From assembly GCA_963749915.1 (NCBI GenBank), contig CAVVOP010000022.1, positions 598,681 to 662,680 on the forward strand: a stretch of DNA of 64,000 nucleotides. The letters run 5' to 3'. Under the pieces are notes generated by a model, which was not told where the DNA came from, made no database searches, and was given only the letters and a program-made list of their open reading frames with translations. The first letter of the stretch is position 1, and every line of letters begins with the position of its first letter. This stretch comes from an uncultured cyanobacterium (GTDB lineage Bacteria; Cyanobacteriota; Cyanobacteriia; Cyanobacteriales; Cyanobacteriaceae). The translations under genes and the position numbers were made by a program. Below, one piece after another: positions 24,218 to 63,989 of this stretch.

Positions 24218-25891
24218 ATGACCACTGAAAATATTTACGGTAATCTTCAAGGTTTAAAGCCTAGTCAACTTAAACAGTTACAAAAACTTTATTATCAACG
24301 TATCAGAAGCGATCGCCTGACCACTACAGAATTTGCCGAAAGAATCGCCGCTATTAGTACTGACCTTAAGCAGCCCGTGTGCGTGTATTTAAACCGCCGA
24401 GGACAAGTGATTAGGGTGGGAGTTGGGACTCCCCGTCAAACTCAAATTCCTCCTTTAGAATTGCCCCGTTATGGTATGGAAAGACTATCCGGCATTCGTT
24501 GTTTAGCTACCTCATTAAAATCTTCTCCCCCCAGTGAGGCTTGTTTAACGGCGATGGCACGGCAGAGATTAGACGCTCTGGTGCTGCTTACTTTAACGGG
24601 AAGCGGCGTTATCCGTAAAGGAGGGGGAGCAAGGGGTTTTATTGAGGACACTTATGTAGCCCATTTATTGCCGGTTCAGGAGAATGAAGCCTATTGGGAA
24701 GTGTCCCTACCACAAGAAATCGAGGACATCGCCGAGCAGGATTTTCTGGATTTGGTGGACAGTTTGGAAACGGAATTTAGTCGAGAATTTATCGCCCAGG
24801 ATGTTTCCTCCCAAGAGGATAGGGTCTTATTGGTGGGGTTGATGACGGCAAATATGACGGAGCAAAAATTTGAGGATAGTTTACAAGAGTTAGCTTTATT
24901 GGTGGATAGTGCCGGTGGAAAGGTCTTGGCTACCATTGAGCAAAAACGCTCTAGGCCTCACCCACAAACCTTGGTAGGTGCGGGAAAAGTGGAAGAAATT
25001 GCTTTACAGGTACAAACTTCAGGTGCGAATTTAGTGGTATTCGATCGAGAATTGTCCCCTGGTCAAGTGCGTAATTTAGAGTTACAATTCGGTGTTAGAG
25101 TTGTCGATCGTACAGAGGTAATTTTGGATATATTTGCTCAACGGGCACAATCGGGAGCGGGTAAATTACAAGTAGAATTGGCTCAGTTAGAATATATGCT
25201 ACCTCGTTTGACCGGTAGAGGATTAGCTATGTCAAAGTTAGGAGGTGGTATTGGTACAAGAGGACCCGGGGAGACTAAACTGGAAACAGAAAGACGGGCA
25301 ATCCAAAAACGCATTAACAGACTTCAGCAAGAAGTTAATCAGTTACAATCTCATCGATCCAGATTGAGACAACAACGACAAAAACAAGAAATTCCTTCGG
25401 TGGCGATCGTGGGTTATACTAATGCGGGAAAATCCACTTTAATTAATGCCCTTACTAACGCGGAAGTTTACACCGCCGATCAACTTTTTGCAACCTTAGA
25501 TCCCACTACAAGAAGACTAACTATCACCGATAATACAGGAGAGTCTCGCACAATTTTATTGACGGATACCGTGGGTTTTATCCATGAATTACCCCCTCAA
25601 TTAGTAGATTCTTTTCGGGCGACATTAGAGGAAGTAACAGAAGCCGATGCCATGTTGCACGTGGTCGATTTATCGCACCCCACATGGGAAAGTCACATTA
25701 ATTCGGTGAAGACGATTTTAGCCGATATGCCTTTAGCACCGAATAGGTCGTTAATCGTATTCAATAAGATAGACAAAGCCGATAGTGACCAGTTAGAAAT
25801 CGCTAAAAAAAATTATCCCCAAGGGGTGTTTATTTCGGCACAAAAACGTCTAGGTTTAGAAACCTTGCGCAGTCGTCTAGTGAGTTTTTAA
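24218..25891 (+). CDS. hflX: GTPase HflX (long cyanobacterial form)
   Basis: ILDIFAQRA, GGIGTRGPGE, GYTNAGKST, LFATLDPT, DTVGF, NKID. Confidence 0.96.
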   Translation: MTTENIYGNLQGLKPSQLKQLQKLYYQRIRSDRLTTTEFAERIAAISTDLKQPVCVYLNRRGQVIRVGVGTPRQTQIPPLELPRYGMERLSGIRCLATSLKSSPPSEACLTAMARQRLDALVLLTLTGSGVIRKGGGARGFIEDTYVAHLLPVQENEAYWEVSLPQEIEDIAEQDFLDLVDSLETEFSREFIAQDVSSQEDRVLLVGLMTANMTEQKFEDSLQELALLVDSAGGKVLATIEQKRSRPHPQTLVGAGKVEEIALQVQTSGANLVVFDRELSPGQVRNLELQFGVRVVDRTEVILDIFAQRAQSGAGKLQVELAQLEYMLPRLTGRGLAMSKLGGGIGTRGPGETKLETERRAIQKRINRLQQEVNQLQSHRSRLRQQRQKQEIPSVAIVGYTNAGKSTLINALTNAEVYTADQLFATLDPTTRRLTITDNTGESRTILLTDTVGFIHELPPQLVDSFRATLEEVTEADAMLHVVDLSHPTWESHINSVKTILADMPLAPNRSLIVFNKIDKADSDQLEIAKKNYPQGVFISAQKRLGLETLRSRLVSF

Positions 25892-52600: not shown

Positions 52601-53917
52601 ATGAAAAACCATCAACTTAAAATATTTTTAACCTTATTAATTAGTGTCAATTGGCTAACCGTTGGGTGTGGCATATTTGGCACAACTGAAGAAAGGACTT
52701 CCACTACCACTGAAATAGGAAGTGGTACTGCTTCTGGTGACGATACGTTAAAATTAGGGGCTTTATTCCCTATTACGGGGGATTTATCGTCTATTGGTCA
52801 AAATATGCCCATTGCCGCTCAATTAGCGGTGGACACCATTAACGCCTGTGGCGGTGTCAATGGAAAACCCGTTACTCTTGTTAAAGAAGATGATCAAACA
52901 GATCCTGTGGCGGGAACTTCTGCTATCACCAAATTAACGGAAGTTGATAGGGTAGTCGGAGTGGTGGGATCTTTTGCCAGTAGTGTTTCTACCGCGGCTT
53001 TGGATGTGGCGGTCAGAAATAAGGTAATGATGATTTCTCCGGGTAGTACAAGCCCCATTTTTACCGACAGGGCGAAAAAAGGCGAATTTAACGGATTTTG
53101 GGCACGCACGGCACCGCCTGACACCTATCAAGCACAAGCCTTAGCCGCCTTAGCTGAGAAAGAAGGGTTTAATAATGTTTCTACCGTAGTTATAAATAAC
53201 GATTATGGGGTAGCCTTTGAGCAACAATTTGTCAATGCTTTTTCCAAGGCAGGAGGCAATATTCTCGATAAAGATAAACCAGTACGCTATGACCCAAAAG
53301 CAACGACATTAGACAGTGAAGCATCGGCTGCTTTTGCCAATCAACCTGATGCAGTAGCGGCAGTTTTATATGCAGAAACGGGGAGTTTATTGTTACAAGC
53401 AGCGTTTAAACAGGGTTTAACTAAAGATGTTACCGTTTTGTTGACCGATGGGGTTTATTCTGAGGATTTCACAAAACAAGTGGGTAAAACGGCTGATGGT
53501 ACTTCAATTATAGCTGGGGCATTAGGCACAGTACCAGGGGCGGATGGTAAGGCTTTAGCTGATTTTACTGTTTTATGGAAAGAAAAAACTGGAGATAAAC
53601 CTGTTACTGCTTTTGTTCCCCATACATGGGATGCTACCATTTTATTGATGTTAGCGGCACAATCGGCCGGAAATAACTCTGGAGAAGGTATTAAGAGTAA
53701 TATTCGGGAAGTATCTGGTGGTGAAGGCACAGAAGTTACAGATCCGTGTCAGGGGATGGAACTATTACGCAAGGGTGAGAAAATTAATTATCAAGGTGCT
53801 AGTGGTAATGTTGATATTGATGAGAATGGAGATGTTATCGGGGTTTATGATGTCTGGCGAGTCAATCCCAATGGTAGTTTAGAGGTTATTGATAAAATTT
53901 CTCCTATTATTGAATAA
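52601..53917 (+). CDS. natB: Neutral amino acid ABC transporter substrate-binding lipoprotein (NatB/LivJ-like)
   Basis: Lipobox (TVGC), INACGGVNG, ISPGSTSP, ARTAPPD, NNDYG, INYQGASG. Confidence 0.85.
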   Translation: MKNHQLKIFLTLLISVNWLTVGCGIFGTTEERTSTTTEIGSGTASGDDTLKLGALFPITGDLSSIGQNMPIAAQLAVDTINACGGVNGKPVTLVKEDDQTDPVAGTSAITKLTEVDRVVGVVGSFASSVSTAALDVAVRNKVMMISPGSTSPIFTDRAKKGEFNGFWARTAPPDTYQAQALAALAEKEGFNNVSTVVINNDYGVAFEQQFVNAFSKAGGNILDKDKPVRYDPKATTLDSEASAAFANQPDAVAAVLYAETGSLLLQAAFKQGLTKDVTVLLTDGVYSEDFTKQVGKTADGTSIIAGALGTVPGADGKALADFTVLWKEKTGDKPVTAFVPHTWDATILLMLAAQSAGNNSGEGIKSNIREVSGGEGTEVTDPCQGMELLRKGEKINYQGASGNVDIDENGDVIGVYDVWRVNPNGSLEVIDKISPIIE

Positions 53918-53926
53918 CAGCTTAGT

Positions 53927-53977
53927 AATTATCAACTGTCAACTATCAACTATCAACTATCAATTATCAATTATCAA
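53927..53977. repeat. Heptamer STRR (CAACTAT/CAATTAT)n
   Basis: About 7 tandem units between natB and parA. Confidence 0.85.
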
Positions 53978-53981
53978 GATT

Positions 53982-54575
53982 ATGTTAATCGCAATTGCTT
54001 CTTTAAAAGGTGGTGTAGGAAAAACAACTACGGCTATACATTTATCAACTTATTTACAAACCGATAAAGCAACTTTATTAATAGATGCCGATCGTAATCG
54101 TTCTGCGTTAGTATGGGCTAGAGAGGACAATCTACCTTTTACCGTTGCATCCCAGGCAGGTTCAGCGGCTTTTATTCCTAGACATCAACATATTGTCACT
54201 GATATGAAAGCTGGCCCAGAAGAAGAGGATTTAGTCGATTTAGCACAAGGGAACGATCTAATTATTATTCCGACAACTCCTAATCATCTCGATTTAGATG
54301 CAACGGTTAAAGCGGTGGAAATGTTGAAAAAACATAATGTTAATAATTATAAAATTCTCTTGACAAAAGTTGATTCACGGACCACTAACAGTCGTACTGC
54401 AAAACAATTTTTAGACAGAGAAAATTTGCCCTTATTTCAAACAGAAATTCCTTTATTGATTGCCTTTGAAAGAGCATCACAAAACGGTAAAACTGTCAGA
54501 GATTATAGTGATTTTCGAGCCAAACAGGCATGGCGACAATATGAATCCGTGGGGAAAGAAATCTTAAACAACTAA
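53982..54575 (+). CDS. ParA/Soj family ATPase (short form)
   Basis: KGGVGKTT deviant Walker A, LIDAD; ATG 53982 (the ORF-track extension is translated STRR). Confidence 0.9.
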   Translation: MLIAIASLKGGVGKTTTAIHLSTYLQTDKATLLIDADRNRSALVWAREDNLPFTVASQAGSAAFIPRHQHIVTDMKAGPEEEDLVDLAQGNDLIIIPTTPNHLDLDATVKAVEMLKKHNVNNYKILLTKVDSRTTNSRTAKQFLDRENLPLFQTEIPLLIAFERASQNGKTVRDYSDFRAKQAWRQYESVGKEILNN

Positions 54576-54611
54576 TAAATAAAAATTCTATTAAATTAAA
54601 TAAATTGTCTA

Positions 54612-55964
54612 TTGATTATCGCTTATACTTATACAGACCCAATTATAGATAAAATCCCAGATGCCTTTATTTGGGGTTTTGAAGTTAGTGGCGTTTATCA
54701 AGATATAGGTAATAGAAAACAATTGGAAGAATTAATTCTCAATTGTCAACAAAATCCGCCTAATTATCTATTAATTCGCAGTTTATCAGAATTGGGAAAT
54801 AGTTTATCCCAAGTTACTCAAGCGATCGACAAAATTGAAAAATTAAATATAGAAATTATTGCCATTGAAGAAGATTATAATAGTAGTAAATTTAAGGTAA
54901 TTAAAGATAGTAAAACAAGAGAAAAATTGAGAGTAATTTGGGAAGAAATAAGCAGAAAATATCATAGTAGAAAATTACAAAAATCTCATAGCAATAATCG
55001 TTTAAACATCCTACCGCCCCCGGGAAAAGCCCCTTATGGTTATTTAAGAGGTAAGGATAGTTACGTGATAAATAGAGCCACTGCCCCTATTGTTAAAGAC
55101 TTTTTTGAGCGCTTTTTATTATATTCTTCCGTGAGGGATAGTGTGAGATATTTGGAAGAAAAATATAATAAAAAAATTGCTTTATCTACGGCCCTTCATT
55201 GGTTAAAAAATCCTGTTTATCGAGGAGATTTAGGCTATAAAAATCAAGAGATTATTGCCGATACTCACACACCCATCATTAGCCGAGAAGAAGCCGCTCA
55301 AATCGATAGAATTTTAAAAAGTCATCGCCTTGTGAAACCTAGAAGTGCCTCCGCTAATTATTCTCTGGCAGGGTTAGTCAAATGTAAAATTTGTCAGTCA
55401 TCTTTTAGGATAACGAAAGTGAATAGTAAAAAGTATCAAGAAAAATATTTATACTTAATTCCTAGTAAATGTAAGGCGAATATCCGTTGTAAGTGTCTAA
55501 AATATGAGCAAGTTTTTGAGGAAGTTATCAATAAAATTTGTATAGAATTTCCTCTACTGGCTAAAAATATTAATATCCCAGATCCTCAATTTGTCATACA
55601 AAAAATAGACCAACAAATACAACAGAAAGAAAAAATTTTACAGAAGATAAAAAAATTAATTATAGAAAATATTTTAGATGAAGAAACAGCACAAATTAGA
55701 AGTTATAAAATTAACCTAGAAATTGCTCAATTAAAACAAAAAATAGCACAATTGCCTCCCGATAATCTTGGCATTATTGCTTGTACCCTTTCTAATCCCC
55801 AATTTTGGTATGATTTATCACCAGCAGAATGTCGTTTTTATTTGCGAGAATTTGTTAAAGTGGTTGAAATTCTTCCCCTTAACAATAATGACAAATGTAG
55901 ATATAATAATTGCAAATATGAGGATATAACATTAGATTTTATTTTTTCAAATTACAACAAATAG
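54612..55964 (+). CDS. Large serine recombinase-like protein, catalytic motif degenerate
   Basis: G.APYGY, WLKNPVYRG, H.PIIS.E, LAGLVKC..C Zn ribbon, coiled coil; N-terminus AYTYTD rather than Y.R.S. Confidence 0.75.
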   Translation: MIIAYTYTDPIIDKIPDAFIWGFEVSGVYQDIGNRKQLEELILNCQQNPPNYLLIRSLSELGNSLSQVTQAIDKIEKLNIEIIAIEEDYNSSKFKVIKDSKTREKLRVIWEEISRKYHSRKLQKSHSNNRLNILPPPGKAPYGYLRGKDSYVINRATAPIVKDFFERFLLYSSVRDSVRYLEEKYNKKIALSTALHWLKNPVYRGDLGYKNQEIIADTHTPIISREEAAQIDRILKSHRLVKPRSASANYSLAGLVKCKICQSSFRITKVNSKKYQEKYLYLIPSKCKANIRCKCLKYEQVFEEVINKICIEFPLLAKNINIPDPQFVIQKIDQQIQQKEKILQKIKKLIIENILDEETAQIRSYKINLEIAQLKQKIAQLPPDNLGIIACTLSNPQFWYDLSPAECRFYLREFVKVVEILPLNNNDKCRYNNCKYEDITLDFIFSNYNK

Positions 55965-58050: not shown

Positions 58051-59571
58051 ATGACAGCTAAAACCCCCTTGCGAGATGCGATCGTGATTTTGCCTGGAAT
58101 CATGGGAAGTGTTTTACAAAAAGATGGTACAGACCTTTGGAATGTTTCTGGTCAAGTAATTGGGCAGATAGTAAAAAGTTTAGGCAAGGGGTTCAAGGAC
58201 TTGAAGCTAATGGGGGATGATCCAAAAGGTGGAGATATTGGTGACGGCATTAAACCGACTGGCTTGATTCAAGATACTTATCTCGTCCCTGGATTATCTG
58301 GGTTTGGAAAAATTGTTGATGGTTACAATAGAACATCAGAAATAATTACCAAAAACTTTCAAGTTACTGAGGGGAATATCTACGATGATCCAGAGGATAA
58401 AGCAGCAAATTTTTATCATTTTCCCTACGATTGGCGGCGGGATAATCGGGCTAATGCCCATATCCTGAAAAATTTATTAACTAAAAGATTGAAACGGTGG
58501 CGTGAGTTTAGTGGCAATAAAGATGCCAAGGTAATTCTCTTGGCCCACAGTATGGGAGGTTTAATTTCTCGTTATTATTTAGAGGTATTGGGAGGATGGC
58601 AGGATTGTAAGGCATTATTTACTTTCGGGACTCCCTATCGGGGTTCCCTGAATGCCGTTAACATCCTCGCTAATGGCATGAAAAAAGGCCCTATCGATAT
58701 CGGCGAAATCTTGAAGCTTAATGAGGTCATTCCTACCCTGACTTCTATCTATCAGTTACTCCCCAGATATAAAGCCCTGAAAATTGGCAACGATTTTTAT
58801 CGCATCGCTCAATCTCCGGTCGATCTTCCTAACATCGATCGCGTTAAAGCCACAGATGCTTTGAAATTTTATGACGAAATTGATGATGCTGCCGACGCTA
58901 ACCAGGGGAATCTCATTTATCGGAAGTCTTTTGTGACTTGTCCCATCGTCGGGGTACAGCAACCGACTCTGCAATCGGCTGAACTGGTGAATGGAGTAAT
59001 TAGCGTTAGTGAAGTCCTGCCCACTTTTTTACAAGATCGTTCCCATCTGGGGGATGGAGATGGCACGGTTCCTCAAGTATCAGCTACTCCCGTGCAGATG
59101 AACGATCTGGAAATGCTTTCCACTGTCGATTATATTGCAGAGAGTCACGGAGCCTTACAAAATCAGCCCGACATTTTACTGAATTTGCTCAAAGGCATTC
59201 AAACGGCCCAAACGGCTCCTCTGGAAGATGTGCGAGGAGCTCTGGAAAGTGTCACCAGAGGAAGAAGGAGTGGCGTCAAAGGTATTGGTTTGAGTCTAGA
59301 GGATTTCTATCTCATTAATGAACCTGTCACCCTGCGAGCCAAAGTTTCGGGAGGTAGTTCTTTTAACACGCTCACGGCTCAGATTAGCTGCGTTTCCCAC
59401 GATCGCCCTGTAATTACTCGGAATTTTGTCAATGACAATGAAAACTGGGTGATGTCAACAGATAACTTGGAAGCTGGGCTATATCGAGTGAAAGTCCAAA
59501 CCGATAATACCGGCGAAGATGCCCCGAACCCCGTCCACGAACTTTTTGAAGTTGCAGATTTAGGAGAGTAA
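58051..59571 (+). CDS. Alpha/beta-hydrolase (lipase/LCAT-like) with C-terminal beta-rich domain
   Basis: LPGIMGS oxyanion strand, FPYDWR, AHSMGG nucleophile elbow, GTPYRGS, GDGTVP, late His (ESHGAL); GGAGG RBS before ATG 58051. Confidence 0.88.
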   Translation: MTAKTPLRDAIVILPGIMGSVLQKDGTDLWNVSGQVIGQIVKSLGKGFKDLKLMGDDPKGGDIGDGIKPTGLIQDTYLVPGLSGFGKIVDGYNRTSEIITKNFQVTEGNIYDDPEDKAANFYHFPYDWRRDNRANAHILKNLLTKRLKRWREFSGNKDAKVILLAHSMGGLISRYYLEVLGGWQDCKALFTFGTPYRGSLNAVNILANGMKKGPIDIGEILKLNEVIPTLTSIYQLLPRYKALKIGNDFYRIAQSPVDLPNIDRVKATDALKFYDEIDDAADANQGNLIYRKSFVTCPIVGVQQPTLQSAELVNGVISVSEVLPTFLQDRSHLGDGDGTVPQVSATPVQMNDLEMLSTVDYIAESHGALQNQPDILLNLLKGIQTAQTAPLEDVRGALESVTRGRRSGVKGIGLSLEDFYLINEPVTLRAKVSGGSSFNTLTAQISCVSHDRPVITRNFVNDNENWVMSTDNLEAGLYRVKVQTDNTGEDAPNPVHELFEVADLGE

Positions 59572-59577
59572 ACAATT

Positions 59578-61653
59578 ATGGCTGACTTCTGCGCTTTACT
59601 GATCGGTATTGATTATTACCAACCCAATCCTTACTACAAGAGCCTACAGGGGGCGGTGCGAGATATTGACAAGGTTGCAGATTATCTGGAGAAATCCCGA
59701 CAAGTACCTTCAGAAAAAATTACACGGCTGACTTCTCCTTTGCCGGATACTAATTCTCTGGCAGATGTCAGGGCGGCACGTCAGGAAATGCCCCCAACCT
59801 ATGAAAATATTGTCAAGGCTTTTAACCGCATCACCGAAACTGCCCAAGCCCAGGATCTAGTTTACATTCACTATTCTGGTCACGGTGGGCGGGCAAAAAC
59901 AGCTTACCCCGACTTGAAAGGAGAGGGACAGTACGATGAGGGTTTAGTGCCGATGGATGTGGGCAATGATGGCTACTATCTGCGGGATGTGGAAATGGCT
60001 ACTCTGCTGAAACGGATGACGGATAAAGGGTTAATCGTGACGGTTATCTTTGATAGTTGTCATTCAGGGGGTGCAACGCGAGGTGATGGTGAGATTCGGG
60101 GTTCGAGAAATGGAGAACCAGATACCAAGGACAGACCTGCTGATAGTGCCGTAGCGACCAGGGAGGAATTAGTTCAAAATTGGTTAAATTTAACCCAAGG
60201 AGACCAAAAAGAAGGCTGGTTGCCGAATCAAAGGGACTATGTTTTCTTAGGTGCTTGCCGTCCTACGGAGTTGGCCTATGAAGCAGCCTTTGATAGCAAA
60301 GATCGCAATGGAGCATTAACTTATTGGATGATTGATACCCTTGTTAATAGCAAGTCTGCATTAACTTACCAGTCTCTCTACAATCGCGTCAAAGGGATGA
60401 TTCAAAGTAAATTCCCCAATCAATTACCGATGTTGTTAGGGGAAGGCGATCGCTTGGTATTTGGGGATAAACAACAATATAAACCTTATACCCTGGTCGT
60501 TATTGACGTAACTGAAGACCAAAAAGAGATTACATTAGATGCCGGAATGGCGGCTGGTTTAAGCTCTGGTACTCGTTTTGCCATTTATCCCACCGACGAT
60601 GTTTCTGATAAAACCCAACAACTGGCGATCGCCGAATTGACAGACGAGATTCAAGCGGATAAATCAACGGCTAGAATTTTAAGTCCTGATGAGGGGGGAA
60701 TTGTTGTTAAAGGCAAGATCGAACCAGGTGCTTCGGCGGTGATGGTAACCGCACCCGTTAATTTAATTAAGAAAGTTCGTTTATTCACCCAAAAGCAAGC
60801 AGGCGATCGCGAACAGGATCTACCTGTAAATTTAGTTGATAAACAAGTTGAAGCTCTAGCAAAAGTTCGCCAAGCTTTAGTAGATAATGGCTGGGTAGTG
60901 GAAGTTAAAGATGGGGAAGAAGCGCACTATCAAGTTGCGGTTGGTAAAGATGGGGAGTATGAAATCTGTATTGGAATGCCCATTAAAAACTTGCGTCCAC
61001 CCTTAAAAATTGACGATCTAGAAGCACCACAAAAAGTGGTCGATCGCTTGGTTCACTTAGGCAAATATCAAGCTGTGCAAGAGTTGGACAATCCTGCTTC
61101 CGAGTTGACTGATTATTTGGAATTTGAGTTGTGCGATAAGAATAAACAACCTTTTCCCGATCCGCAAAATGTTTCTTTAAAACCGGGAGAGGTTTCCTTT
61201 TTAAAACTTAAAAATACCTACGAGCAAACATTAAATGTAGCGGTTTTAGATTTAGAGCCAACTTGGGAAATTTCTCAGGTTCCCGTTCAAGGAAAGATAG
61301 CCTCTTTTCTGCCTTTAGATCCCGGACAAGAAGCATTTACTAAGTTACGTTTACAACTGCCTGGGGATTATCAGCAAATAATGGAAACTTTAAAAGTGTT
61401 TGCCACTAAGGGAGTAGCAAACTTTCAATGGTTACTGTTACCATCATTAGATGAACAACCAGCAACTAGGGGCGCTACTCTTAATGAGGAGTTACGAACT
61501 AGGGGGGGTAATGTCAATCCGCTTAACAATCTCTTGACGGCTATCGGGGGTGATGTCAATAATCCCCCGAAGTTAACTCGTGCTATGATTTACGAAAGCG
61601 ATCCAGAAGCGGAATGGGTCACGAAAGAAATTGTAATCACCGTTCAATCGTAG
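59578..61653 (+). CDS. Caspase-family (C14 meta/orthocaspase) protease with long C-terminal region
   Basis: ALLIGIDYY, L.GAVRD, HYSGHG (His), IFDSCHSG (Cys), AC...E.A.E, GALTY. Confidence 0.93.
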   Translation: MADFCALLIGIDYYQPNPYYKSLQGAVRDIDKVADYLEKSRQVPSEKITRLTSPLPDTNSLADVRAARQEMPPTYENIVKAFNRITETAQAQDLVYIHYSGHGGRAKTAYPDLKGEGQYDEGLVPMDVGNDGYYLRDVEMATLLKRMTDKGLIVTVIFDSCHSGGATRGDGEIRGSRNGEPDTKDRPADSAVATREELVQNWLNLTQGDQKEGWLPNQRDYVFLGACRPTELAYEAAFDSKDRNGALTYWMIDTLVNSKSALTYQSLYNRVKGMIQSKFPNQLPMLLGEGDRLVFGDKQQYKPYTLVVIDVTEDQKEITLDAGMAAGLSSGTRFAIYPTDDVSDKTQQLAIAELTDEIQADKSTARILSPDEGGIVVKGKIEPGASAVMVTAPVNLIKKVRLFTQKQAGDREQDLPVNLVDKQVEALAKVRQALVDNGWVVEVKDGEEAHYQVAVGKDGEYEICIGMPIKNLRPPLKIDDLEAPQKVVDRLVHLGKYQAVQELDNPASELTDYLEFELCDKNKQPFPDPQNVSLKPGEVSFLKLKNTYEQTLNVAVLDLEPTWEISQVPVQGKIASFLPLDPGQEAFTKLRLQLPGDYQQIMETLKVFATKGVANFQWLLLPSLDEQPATRGATLNEELRTRGGNVNPLNNLLTAIGGDVNNPPKLTRAMIYESDPEAEWVTKEIVITVQS

Positions 61654-61669
61654 AAAGGAGAATGGTTGA

Positions 61670-63175
61670 ATGAAAAAAATCCTCATACTCGCATCTAACC
61701 CCCGCAAAGACCTCAACCTCGACGATGAAATAAGGCTGCTGAGAGATGTAGTCGATCGATCCCGCGATCGCGATCAATTTGAGATTGTCAGTGAACCGGG
61801 AGTAAAAGTTGGGGATTTACAGGGGCTACTACTTCGGCACGAACCACAAATTGTACATTTTTGTGGGCATGGGGGTGGCGAGGAAGGGTTAATCTTCAAA
61901 ATGGAGGGAGGAGGCGAACAGTGGGTACGAGCAGATGCACTGGCTGGTATGTTTAAGCTAAATCCCATCTGTAGCCACGTTAAGTGTGTGTTGCTCAACG
62001 CCTGTTATTCAGAAGAACAAGCCAACGTTATTGTGAGCGGTATTAATTATGTAGTTGGCATGAGCCATGAAATTCAAGATGACGCAGCAATTGCCTTCTC
62101 AAAGGGGTTCTATTTAGCGTTAGGCTACGGATGTTCGATCGATGATGCGTTTGAGTTTGGCAAAAATGCAATTCAGTTAGAGATTTCGGGCAGTTCTAAG
62201 AAACGATCGGCGATATCTGAAGTGCAACGCCAGATGGAGGTGATTGATGCAGTGAAAAACACCCCAATTCCCGAACATTTAAAGCCAATTCTCAAAAAGA
62301 AGGCCACCCTAACCTCAGATTCAAGTCCTAATACTCTCTCTCAGGAAAAAACAGTCGAGATTCAACTGGCTATTGACAAAACATTAGAGGCAGATGACAA
62401 AGAGACAGATGCCAAAGTCAAGCAGTATCGCGATCGGGCCAGATGGTACCTAGAAGATCGAAAATTGACCGAGGTTGAGAAAATTCGGTTAAACCAGCTT
62501 CAAAAACAATTAGGACTTGACCAAAAGGAGGCAGATCGGATTTTAGAGGAGGAGCTTGCGCCAATTCATCGATCGCAGCAGAATTATCGGGAGCTACTGA
62601 ATGAACTCATTACCAGAGGTTGTTATCCATTCGATCCAACGATTCAGGAAGAGTTAAAACAGTGTCAACGAGAAGAAAATCTAACGGAGGAAGAAGTTAA
62701 CGAGATTTCACGTTCTATCCTTGAAGCCGCAGAAGCAGCCTATCAGAAAAAGCAGAGGCAGGAAGCACAACAAGCCGATGAGAATAAACGACAACGCTAC
62801 GAACAGGAGTTTATACGAGCGATTAGTGCTGGGTATCCCATAGAGGATTTAGTTCGCAGTGGTCTGAGAAATTTTCAGCATTCTTTAGGACTGAGTGATG
62901 GGGATATTGAGCGAATTGAACAACCGATTATTGCCCCCAAAGAAGTGGCATATCAACAGGAGTTAGCCGAGGCACAGCGACAAAGGGAACAAGAAGAAGA
63001 AAAGGCAAGAGAGCGATCGCAGCAACGGGAAGAGGCCGAACGGAAACGAGTGCAGGAGGAAGCAGCAAAACGAGAACAACAACGCCAGCTTGAACTCGAA
63101 CGGCAACGTCTGGAAGAAGAACGACGTGAGCGAATGAAAACGAGGCAGGGTAAATCAATCATTACAACGGTTTGA
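61670..63175 (+). CDS. CHAT domain protein with helical repeats and coiled coil (5' part of a frameshifted CHAT-FGE gene)
   Basis: KILILASNP, IVHFCGHG, VLLNACYS, F..GFY.AL..G; AAGGAG RBS; E/R/Q-rich coil. Confidence 0.88.
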   Translation: MKKILILASNPRKDLNLDDEIRLLRDVVDRSRDRDQFEIVSEPGVKVGDLQGLLLRHEPQIVHFCGHGGGEEGLIFKMEGGGEQWVRADALAGMFKLNPICSHVKCVLLNACYSEEQANVIVSGINYVVGMSHEIQDDAAIAFSKGFYLALGYGCSIDDAFEFGKNAIQLEISGSSKKRSAISEVQRQMEVIDAVKNTPIPEHLKPILKKKATLTSDSSPNTLSQEKTVEIQLAIDKTLEADDKETDAKVKQYRDRARWYLEDRKLTEVEKIRLNQLQKQLGLDQKEADRILEEELAPIHRSQQNYRELLNELITRGCYPFDPTIQEELKQCQREENLTEEEVNEISRSILEAAEAAYQKKQRQEAQQADENKRQRYEQEFIRAISAGYPIEDLVRSGLRNFQHSLGLSDGDIERIEQPIIAPKEVAYQQELAEAQRQREQEEEKARERSQQREEAERKRVQEEAAKREQQRQLELERQRLEEERRERMKTRQGKSIITTV

Positions 63176-63254
63176 ATTTGATGTCATTACCGTAGATAAA
63201 AAGGGCAGGGAAAACAGCCGCACTCGAAAGTCAGCCGAGTTCTTTGCTGAGGAT

Positions 63255-63989
63255 TTGGGGAAGGGTGTTTCCCTACACATGGTAAGGATTCCAGGGGGAA
63301 CTTTTCAGATGGGTTCCCCAGCAGGACAGGGAACAGATGAAGAGCGACCTCAACATTCTGTCACCGTGCCTTCATTTTTTATGGGAAAATACCCCATCAC
63401 CCAAGCTCAGTGGCGGGCTATGGCGGCTCTGCCTCAAGTTGAAATCCCACTCAATCCCGATCCGTCTCACTTCAAAGGTGATAATCGTCCGGTGGAACAG
63501 GTCTCTTGGGATAAGGCGGTGGAATTTTGTGAGCGTCTCTCTCGCTTTACAGGGCATCAATACCGTTTGCCCTCTGAAGCTGAATGGGAATACGCCTGTC
63601 GAGCGGGGACAACCACACCCTTCTACTTTGGCGAAACCCTGACCCCAAAGTTGGCCAGATGTAAAGCTAATTTAGGTATGGCTTTAGTTACCATGTTCAT
63701 TGGAAAAACAGCTCCCGTGGGCAGTTACTTGCCAAATGCGTTTGGACTCTATGATATGCACGGTAACGTTTGGGAATGGTGTGCCGATACTTGGCATGAA
63801 AACTATCAAGGTGCACCGACAGATGGAAGCACTTGGTTAGAAAGTGATAATGATTATCGAGTACTGCGGGGCGGTTCATGGGGCGATGATCCCCAGGTCT
63901 GCCGTTCCGCGAGCCGTTTCTGGGGTAGGCTCTTCGACCTCAGCACTTTCGGTTTTCGTGTTGCCTGGGTTTCCGGGAGGACTCTTTAA
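63255..63989 (+). CDS. FGE-sulfatase/SUMF1 (C-type lectin fold) domain; probable 3' part of the CHAT gene (frame open from 63138)
   Basis: IPGGTFQMGS, ITQAQW, RPVEQVSW, RLPSEAEWEYACRAG, NAFGLYDMHGNVWEW, RGGSW, GFRV. Confidence 0.88.
   Translation: MGKGVSLHMVRIPGGTFQMGSPAGQGTDEERPQHSVTVPSFFMGKYPITQAQWRAMAALPQVEIPLNPDPSHFKGDNRPVEQVSWDKAVEFCERLSRFTGHQYRLPSEAEWEYACRAGTTTPFYFGETLTPKLARCKANLGMALVTMFIGKTAPVGSYLPNAFGLYDMHGNVWEWCADTWHENYQGAPTDGSTWLESDNDYRVLRGGSWGDDPQVCRSASRFWGRLFDLSTFGFRVAWVSGRTL
63864..63989 (+). other. Candidate DGR variable region (VR)
   Basis: Between RGGSW and GFRV, 13 of 23 codons end in C and none in A; non-Asn residues occupy positions expected to derive from AAY codons of a template repeat. 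Confidence 0.6.

Follow-up and report, generated by a model that had tools for sequence, protein, structure and literature searches.

Why should a cyanobacterium encode, side by side, a lipase-like enzyme, two different caspase-fold proteases and a lectin-like domain? This question is raised by four co-oriented frames on the + strand at the 3' end of a 64,000-nucleotide (nt) window (that is, the whole stretch of DNA analysed here) from an uncultured member of the Cyanobacteriaceae: an alpha/beta-hydrolase gene (58015/58051-59571), an orthocaspase gene (59578-61653), a CHAT-type protease gene (61670-63175) and an open frame that encodes an FGE-sulfatase domain (63138-63989). This analysis suggests, with a probability of roughly 0.58, that the cluster encodes a lipase which, once licensed by a protease, kills the cell, and that its sensors can be exchanged. 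The original prediction for this DNA had described three co-oriented genes separated by gaps of 6 nt (hydrolase to caspase) and 16 nt (caspase to CHAT), and the coordinates agree.

The licensing of death effectors by proteases is increasingly recognized as a central principle of bacterial immunity and as a likely root of eukaryotic caspase pathways. To this the family described here would add a licensed effector that is a lipase of the LPLA2/Tle4 fold and has a simple candidate site (Arg395); a natural experiment, in which one effector is coupled to three or four types of peptidase; and possibly a relay of two proteases, in which one common initiator domain is joined to many sensors.

The hydrolase, its protease neighbours and a split sensor gene

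The first gene (58051..59571) encodes an LCAT/LPLA2-like alpha/beta-hydrolase of 506 amino acids (aa), as indicated by Pfam, by its catalytic triad, by an AlphaFold2 model and by Foldseek; alignment with relatives places its start at ATG 58051, a longer option being TTG 58015. The protein matches the Pfam LCAT family (PF02450) at 6.1e-15 (55.8 bits versus a cut-off of 21), and its triad, consisting of Ser167 (58549-58551), Asp337 (59059-59061) and His366 (59146-59148), is kept in aligned relatives (47/48, 48/48 and 48/48, respectively). The model (predicted local distance difference test score, pLDDT, 88.7; predicted template-modelling score 0.92) has as its top Foldseek matches LPLA2 (4x92, 6.2e-12), Tle4 (4r1d, 2.9e-10) and LCAT, with template-modelling scores of 0.44/0.56 against LPLA2. 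By its fold the hydrolase is phospholipase-like, of the LPLA2/Tle4/LCAT kind, and it is from this fold that an activity on phospholipids is predicted. With LPLA2, LCAT and Tle4 of the type VI secretion system, which are its best structural matches, it shares the Ser-Asp-His triad and the Pfam assignment; it differs from them in its low identity (14-18%), in being apparently cytoplasmic (no signal peptide by inspection) and in an extra immunoglobulin-like (Ig-like) domain. The latter is a C-terminal beta-sandwich (residues 411-502; 59281..59556) that is all-strand in the model and that locally matches CARDB/Ig-like structures in Foldseek (e.g., 3idu). Between the catalytic and Ig-like domains lies a linker, residues 395-402 (59233..59256), which begins with Arg395-Gly396, which is the sole segment of the model with a pLDDT below 50, and which is a candidate protease cleavage site.

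Residues 1-300 of the second protein (59578..60477) form an orthocaspase/metacaspase-type protease domain, recognized through Pfam (Peptidase_C14, 1.6e-20; 74.3 bits versus a cut-off of 21.4), PADLOC ('caspase', PDLC02987; 2.6e-39), its fold and its catalytic dyad. VIA-align matches it to metacaspase 4 (6w8r_A; Z 25.7, root-mean-square deviation 3.2, 264 residues) and to 8a53_A (Z 25.6), and its profile, when compared with PDB sequences, finds metacaspases at 8.4e-19. Because the dyad, His102 (59881-59883) and Cys161 (60058-60060, within DSCHSG), is kept in all 29 aligned caspases, and the hydrolase triad is likewise conserved, the earlier statement that the motifs of both enzymes are intact holds. 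Members of the metacaspase/orthocaspase family are expected, according to PMC6426788, to cleave after Arg or Lys. The loop that follows the catalytic Cys (60079..60102) contains two such residues, Arg168 and Arg174, as candidate processing sites: both are invariant (29/29), the next residue is Gly in 26/29 and 21/29 sequences, respectively (both Gly in this protein), and the model has a pLDDT below 50 at residues 163-170.

The remainder of this protein (60481..61653) comprises a beta-barrel (residues 302-393), a mixed domain (about 400-505) and an Ig-like sandwich (509-691). These C-terminal ~390 residues have no match in Pfam or NCBIfam, and their structural matches in VIA-align are middling (Z of about 9 for the N-terminal barrels of ATPases and 7.9 for filamin); the protein Atlas points to DUF4384 (0.94; 17% of one cluster), which is to be taken as a lead only. 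The region co-travels with the protease domain in related loci.

The third protein begins with a minimal CHAT-type caspase-fold domain of about 170-185 aa, termed here CHAT_N (residues 1-170; 61670..62179). Its match to Pfam CHAT (PF12770) is marginal (1.2e-05; 25.3 bits versus a cut-off of 24); among PDB sequences its sole match is SAVED-CHAT (8tl0_A, 2.9e-14), where residues 10-163 align with residues 300-453. The dyad, His67 (61868-61870) and Cys112 (62003-62005, within NACYS), is present in 116/120 and 114/120 relatives, the remainder being gaps. Helical repeats and then an E/R/Q-rich charged helix (62237..63154), noted in the original prediction, are indeed visible in the translation; a weak Pfam match to Tic110 spans residues 244-373, and CHAT relatives that carry other C-terminal domains span 71-73% of the query. 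The fourth frame (63138..63989) encodes an FGE-sulfatase/FGS lectin-like domain (Pfam match at about 63276-63968; 2.6e-62, 211 bits), which falls below the NCBIfam cut-offs for the enzymes PvdO (165 versus 500 bits), GldK (108 versus 350) and EgtB (74 versus 360).

The CHAT and FGE parts had been read as one gene with an intact HG/NAC dyad; the dyad and the FGE domain stand, but the single open reading frame (ORF) does not. The CHAT frame closes with the TGA at 63173-63175. The FGE frame is offset from it by +1, and its first ATG, GTG or TTG (TTG 63255) lies 3' of conserved residues; the +1 shift needed to join the two frames falls within their overlap (63138..63175). Nevertheless the two pieces align collinearly with single-chain fusion proteins of 750-770 aa: residues 1-492 of the CHAT ORF align with residues 1-485 of a homologue, and the FGE frame, from its residue 2-9, aligns from homologue residue 467-490. 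The FGE frame shares 74-77% identity with the C-terminal regions of CHAT-FGE fusion proteins, and both domains occur in one chain in 76 of the 119 non-self relatives listed. A perfect tandem AATC-AATC occurs at 63153-63160, and, judging from the sequence, a 4-nt AATC duplication is likely the lesion that split CHAT from FGE. Programmed +1 frameshifting at the stop was rejected because conserved residues 5' of the FGE core are already read in that frame ahead of the TGA that closes the CHAT frame, which places the shift upstream, at the AATC duplication rather than at the stop codon. The idea of a sequencing error in a homopolymer, the A-run at 63137-63141, was dropped because the tandem repeat fits the junction better. 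One 186-nt piece of a public contig is identical, without gaps, over 63062-63247, though it may derive from the source sample; in the public contig piece of one relative, 29 nt replace 63 nt (net -34 nt) and the frame is restored.

Partners of the hydrolase in other genomes

Among 8000 candidates scored there are 5355 relatives of the hydrolase at E <= 0.001. For a survey of gene neighbourhoods, 80 loci around such relatives, on contigs from one genome per species, were scanned with the window proteins and with hidden Markov models (HMMs) built from them. The same ~700-aa orthocaspase, with both its protease and its C-terminal parts, occurs in 35 of these 80 loci, in 34 of them on the hydrolase strand; and 21 of the 35 include genes (one to five per locus) that start with CHAT_N. 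This co-occurrence, which had been proposed as a check, indicates a conserved conflict/cell-death module. Within nine caspase-type loci annotated with Pfam, CHAT_N is fused to NACHT, WD40, HEAT, FGE, GUN4, YARHG or TIR plus AAA_35 domains, a pattern in which the N-terminal CHAT_N stays constant while the C-terminal sensors are exchanged. The FGE domain, which the original prediction had cast as the sensor, appears from this survey to be one of many interchangeable sensor domains, and in the window its gene is frameshifted.

A second kind of partner was found directly 3' of the hydrolase in 28 of the 80 loci (two of them among the 35): a transglutaminase-like domain of about 270-330 aa, whose members match each other at E values of 1e-24 to 1e-117 and which has an invariant Cys (in GTCLD) and His (in GHA). 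Its Pfam matches are weak (DUF553 and Transglut_core, each in 5/16 members), and the profile of the family, when compared with PDB sequences, retrieves no meaningful match (best E 0.16). The fusion partners of the domain are NACHT, NB-ARC, iSTAND, TCAD2 or FGE. These genes (L039:9498-10475, L047:9485-10447, L073:6328-7134 and 25 further loci) adjoin distant members of the hydrolase family, and their sequences look like those of an unnamed cysteine-peptidase-like partner. HMMs of the caspase N-domain, the caspase C-region and CHAT_N, when compared with the N-terminal domains of hydrolase-adjacent STAND proteins, gave E values that all exceed 1; the lack of similarity to these HMMs marks the STAND-fused N-terminal domains as a separate family.

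A third source of evidence is provided by single chains. Among the 120 longer hydrolase relatives listed, 111 join the hydrolase to a CHAT domain, 3 join it to the transglutaminase-like domain and 1 to Peptidase_S8. The hydrolase-CHAT fusions (P0242, P0245, P0249, P0274 and others) are about 970-1200 aa long and many are myxobacterial; hhalign relates their protease domain to the CHAT_N of the window (probability 87.9, E 3.2e-06) and not to its caspase (probability 6.5). Taken together, the partner loci and the fusions indicate that the hydrolase is accompanied by three or four kinds of Cys or Ser peptidase domain. FGE, too, is joined to peptidase-type domains other than CHAT in hydrolase loci, namely to a C14 caspase (L015:5258-7162) and to the transglutaminase-like domain (L068:9480-11144 and L070:5882-7582), and hence to three different peptidase-type N-domains.

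Beside the caspase, 7 of 9 annotated loci have genes for peptidoglycan hydrolases (PG_binding_1 with VanY, phage lysozyme, M74 or YkuD), namely L009:977-1891, L013:4656-5573, L014:1295-2920, L015:2921-4498, L016:1440-2441, L025:1065-2875 and L030:6282-7823. Peptidase_C39_2 genes were observed in L007 and L030. These neighbours may be further lysis effectors; none of either kind was seen in the window itself.

How the lipase may be licensed

Position P1 of the hydrolase linker, which corresponds to Arg395, is Arg or Lys in all 35 caspase-partnered hydrolases, Arg in 23 of 26 whose partner is the transglutaminase-like domain, and Arg in 111 of 120 fusions of the hydrolase with CHAT. A lone conserved basic residue within a linker that is variable in sequence and predicted to be flexible would resemble a protease site.

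The direct results, then, are the domain identities, the conserved catalytic residues, the recurrent gene order and fusions, the fold, and a disordered linker in which a basic residue is conserved; we infer the cleavage and its site, the lipid substrate, the toxicity, the trigger and the order of the proteases. In the proposed scheme the hydrolase would be kept latent as a cytoplasmic phospholipase-like enzyme. On binding of an invader-derived ligand by the FGE/FGS lectin-like sensor, the CHAT module would be activated by assembly, and protease activity would reach the hydrolase either directly or via the orthocaspase, in an initiator-executioner relay like that from SAVED-CHAT to PCaspase. 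A clan-CD cysteine protease would then cut the hydrolase at or near Arg395, between its catalytic and Ig-like domains, and the released hydrolase would attack membrane lipids, resulting in cell death. A more elaborate version, in which various sensors (NACHT, WD40, HEAT, FGE, GUN4, TIR) with a common CHAT initiator converge on one orthocaspase executioner, which activates the phospholipase and perhaps neighbouring peptidoglycan hydrolases so as to lyse the cell, is offered tentatively, as the less probable elaboration; if true, it would constitute a three-tier protease-to-lipase cascade with hub-and-spoke sensing, undescribed for bacteria so far.

Several published systems resemble this one in part. 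According to Kaur et al. (eLife 2020), the caspase domain of their conflict systems is always accompanied by a neighbouring alpha/beta-hydrolase gene, and the cyanobacterial FGS domain is found C-terminal to many other domains; Kaur et al. (2021) propose FGS as an intracellular lectin that senses invaders and the hydrolase as an effector against membrane lipids. A preprint by Evans et al. (10.1101/2025.11.14.688446) reports that a Lysobacter caspase-like protease (LcCaspase) cuts an alpha/beta-hydrolase (LcHydrolase) at two R↓G bonds, and that E. coli is killed by the product. As in these systems, an alpha/beta-hydrolase gene here adjoins a caspase-family protease gene in conflict contexts; and, as for LcCaspase and LcHydrolase, a conserved Arg and a small residue flank the presumed scissile bond, with varied sensors, including FGE, on the protease side. 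In contrast to LcHydrolase, which to judge from the reported fragments has about 300 aa and which is cleaved at both Arg73 and Arg117, the present hydrolase has 506 aa, is LCAT/LPLA2-like, ends in an Ig-like domain and offers one candidate site, at residue 395; and, unlike in the LcCaspase system, the sensors are on a second, CHAT-type protease rather than on the caspase. Pfam finds no MoxR ATPase, vWA or VMAP among the ORFs of 49.6-64 kb, DNA past the contig end not being visible.

With the SAVED-CHAT/PCaspase system (structure 8TL0), where, according to a preprint by Steens et al. (10.1101/2023.06.23.546230), SAVED-CHAT cleaves and activates PCaspase, which then cuts many proteins, the cluster shares a sensor-fused CHAT protease and a separate caspase-family protease. 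It differs in its FGE/FGS lectin-like sensor (NACHT, WD40 and others in relatives) and in the presence of a lipase-like effector; the four ORFs and six upstream genes have no SAVED or cas match in Pfam, and there is no sign of a cyclic-oligoadenylate signal. With the NTP-dependent conflict systems of multicellular bacteria, as described by Kaur et al. (2020, 2021), it shares the cyanobacterial setting, the C-terminal FGS, the alternatives to it (GUN4, TIR, STAND, WD40 and HEAT) and the possibility of several paralogous sensor genes per locus; the shared N-terminal module, however, is here a CHAT protease domain whose catalytic residues look intact, rather than the Death-like EAD adaptor of those sources. 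Finally, the proposed removal of an inhibitory C-terminal part of a membrane-damaging effector by a neighbouring caspase-like or CHAT protease would parallel bacterial gasdermins and their proteases, except that the effector is an enzyme instead of a pore-former and that no gasdermin gene is present.

The claim that the three-gene combination is uncharacterised thus survives in part. A literature search found no description of an LCAT-like hydrolase accompanied by both an orthocaspase and a CHAT-FGE protein, though the source-data tables of Kaur et al. or the supplements of Evans et al. may include the arrangement; FGS sensors, and the pairing of hydrolase and caspase, from which a licensed effector of this sort was predicted, are already in Kaur et al. 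(2020), and Evans et al. have shown such licensing for a different hydrolase. Systems of this kind are known; what is new is the LPLA2-like hydrolase that ends in an Ig-like domain and has one candidate site, the free orthocaspase with C-terminal domains of its own, and the sensors that bear a SAVED-CHAT-like protease module.

Various observations weigh against a protease-licensed lipase. In 14 of the 35 hydrolase-caspase loci no CHAT_N was found within the flanks scanned, some of which are short, and 19 of the 80 loci have neither partner (12 of these 19 with short flanks). Conservation of the linker Arg in 23 of 26 hydrolases with the transglutaminase-like partner makes a shared cleavage logic less neat, and Arg395 could for this reason have another role. 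Homology to LcHydrolase is unproven, inasmuch as the length and the number and position of the sites differ (LcHydrolase being cut twice near its N-terminus). No complete known system was found in PADLOC or NCBIfam: only the caspase matched, so that the PADLOC check succeeded for it alone, with no family in either resource for the hydrolase or CHAT ORF and none in PADLOC for the FGE ORF. The sensor gene, moreover, is frameshifted in this genome. A complex prediction for the hydrolase and caspase residues 1-300 (score 0.00; mark 0.32) speaks neither for nor against binding.

If the lipase is indeed licensed by a protease, the evidence divides between the orthocaspase and CHAT as the cutter. Favouring the orthocaspase are its tight adjacency to the hydrolase, its pairing with the hydrolase in the 14 loci without CHAT_N, and the strictness of Arg/Lys in all caspase-partnered linkers, which fits metacaspase specificity. 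The CHAT-type protease might instead cut the hydrolase directly and leave the orthocaspase as a parallel or downstream executioner with targets of its own, as PCaspase has; this alternative, somewhat unlikely but a rival to be taken seriously, gains most from the hydrolase-CHAT single chains, where the fused protease is closer to CHAT_N than to the caspase (a point that favours a direct link at least equally) and where the linker Arg is retained. Craspase, a characterised CHAT protease, is not known to cut after Arg, and this counts against direct cutting by CHAT. The cascade of the original prediction, from sensor to CHAT to caspase to lipase, accordingly keeps precedents for both of its steps (Evans et al. 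and Steens et al.), while its order is unproven, and the fusions fit a direct CHAT-lipase link at least as well; a CHAT-caspase-lipase order is plausible as one of two live models.

A different explanation, possible though doubtful, concerns this genome alone: that the module is a decaying, non-functional remnant, in which a truncated sensor gene passes no signal to the proteases. The FGE frame is without a usable start, no second sensor could stand in for it (the genome has one copy each of hydrolase, caspase and CHAT_N), and the identical public contig piece, if independent of the source sample, reproduces the frameshift; with the only CHAT-sensor gene of the genome split, the system may be uncoupled from its sensor here, and the window copy is in any case less useful for protein tests. 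Against decay stand the remaining ORFs, which are intact with conserved catalytic residues, and the FGE frame, which at 74-77% identity is undecayed, so that the lesion is either recent or an assembly error; a CHAT protein that has lost its sensor could still act, and a remnant here is compatible with a protease-licensed lipase for the family as a whole. Improbable, by comparison, is a module for developmental or stress-induced programmed cell death or for kin discrimination rather than phage defence: orthocaspases are discussed in connection with cyanobacterial cell death in reviews, and the peptidoglycan hydrolases beside the caspase suit lysis generally, but the patchy, island-like distribution, and the exchange of one sensor type (STAND, TIR or lectin) for another, typify conflict systems, as Kaur et al. 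(2020, 2021) argue. That the genes are chance neighbours with housekeeping roles (a lipid-metabolism esterase, a proteostasis protease and a sulfatase-maturation enzyme) is scarcely credible; every one of the domain families has housekeeping members, and yet the counts of conserved loci and of fusions already contradict this idea, with co-orientation and adjacency conserved across phyla. Further points against it are an FGE domain below all NCBIfam enzyme cut-offs and the failure to find the cluster in the close relatives searched.

Genomic setting of the cluster

The hydrolase turned up in none of the 19 genomes searched from its own family, and in 1 of 21 from other families of the order. 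The guanine-plus-cytosine (GC) fraction climbs from about 0.31-0.36 upstream to 0.42-0.50 in the cluster, as compared with 0.33-0.40 for the contigs of the genome. About 2 kb upstream of the cluster (window 53889-55964) lie genes for a ParA/CbiA-like ATPase and for a large serine recombinase, which, when taken with the GC rise, suggest that the region is mobile or acquired. The cluster is a conserved accessory module that was probably acquired horizontally. A scan for promoters and terminators gave nothing above the shuffled expectation, and nine sediment-metagenome DNA runs contain at most 0.34 of the sampled words.

The 3' end of the window is also the end of its contig (C22; 63990-64000), only 11 nt past the FGE stop, and for this reason genes downstream of the FGE frame cannot be seen; further genes of the module could sit on another contig. 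The genome encodes at least six FGE-domain paralogues, and a repeat may thus have terminated the contig. A diversity-generating retroelement acting on the FGE domain of the cluster was considered; in the assembly, which breaks off at this point, no copy resembling a template repeat of the 3' end of the FGE frame was found, but only paralogue matches of about 70%. Elsewhere in the genome, two repeat pairs (G000:C1:22931-23049 versus 24709-24826, 89% identical, and G000:C23:2790-2922 versus 1481-1616, 82% identical) link the 3' ends of FGE paralogues to copies near reverse-transcriptase genes; by their sequence and placement these pairs look like diversity-generating retroelements that would act on other FGE proteins of the genome.

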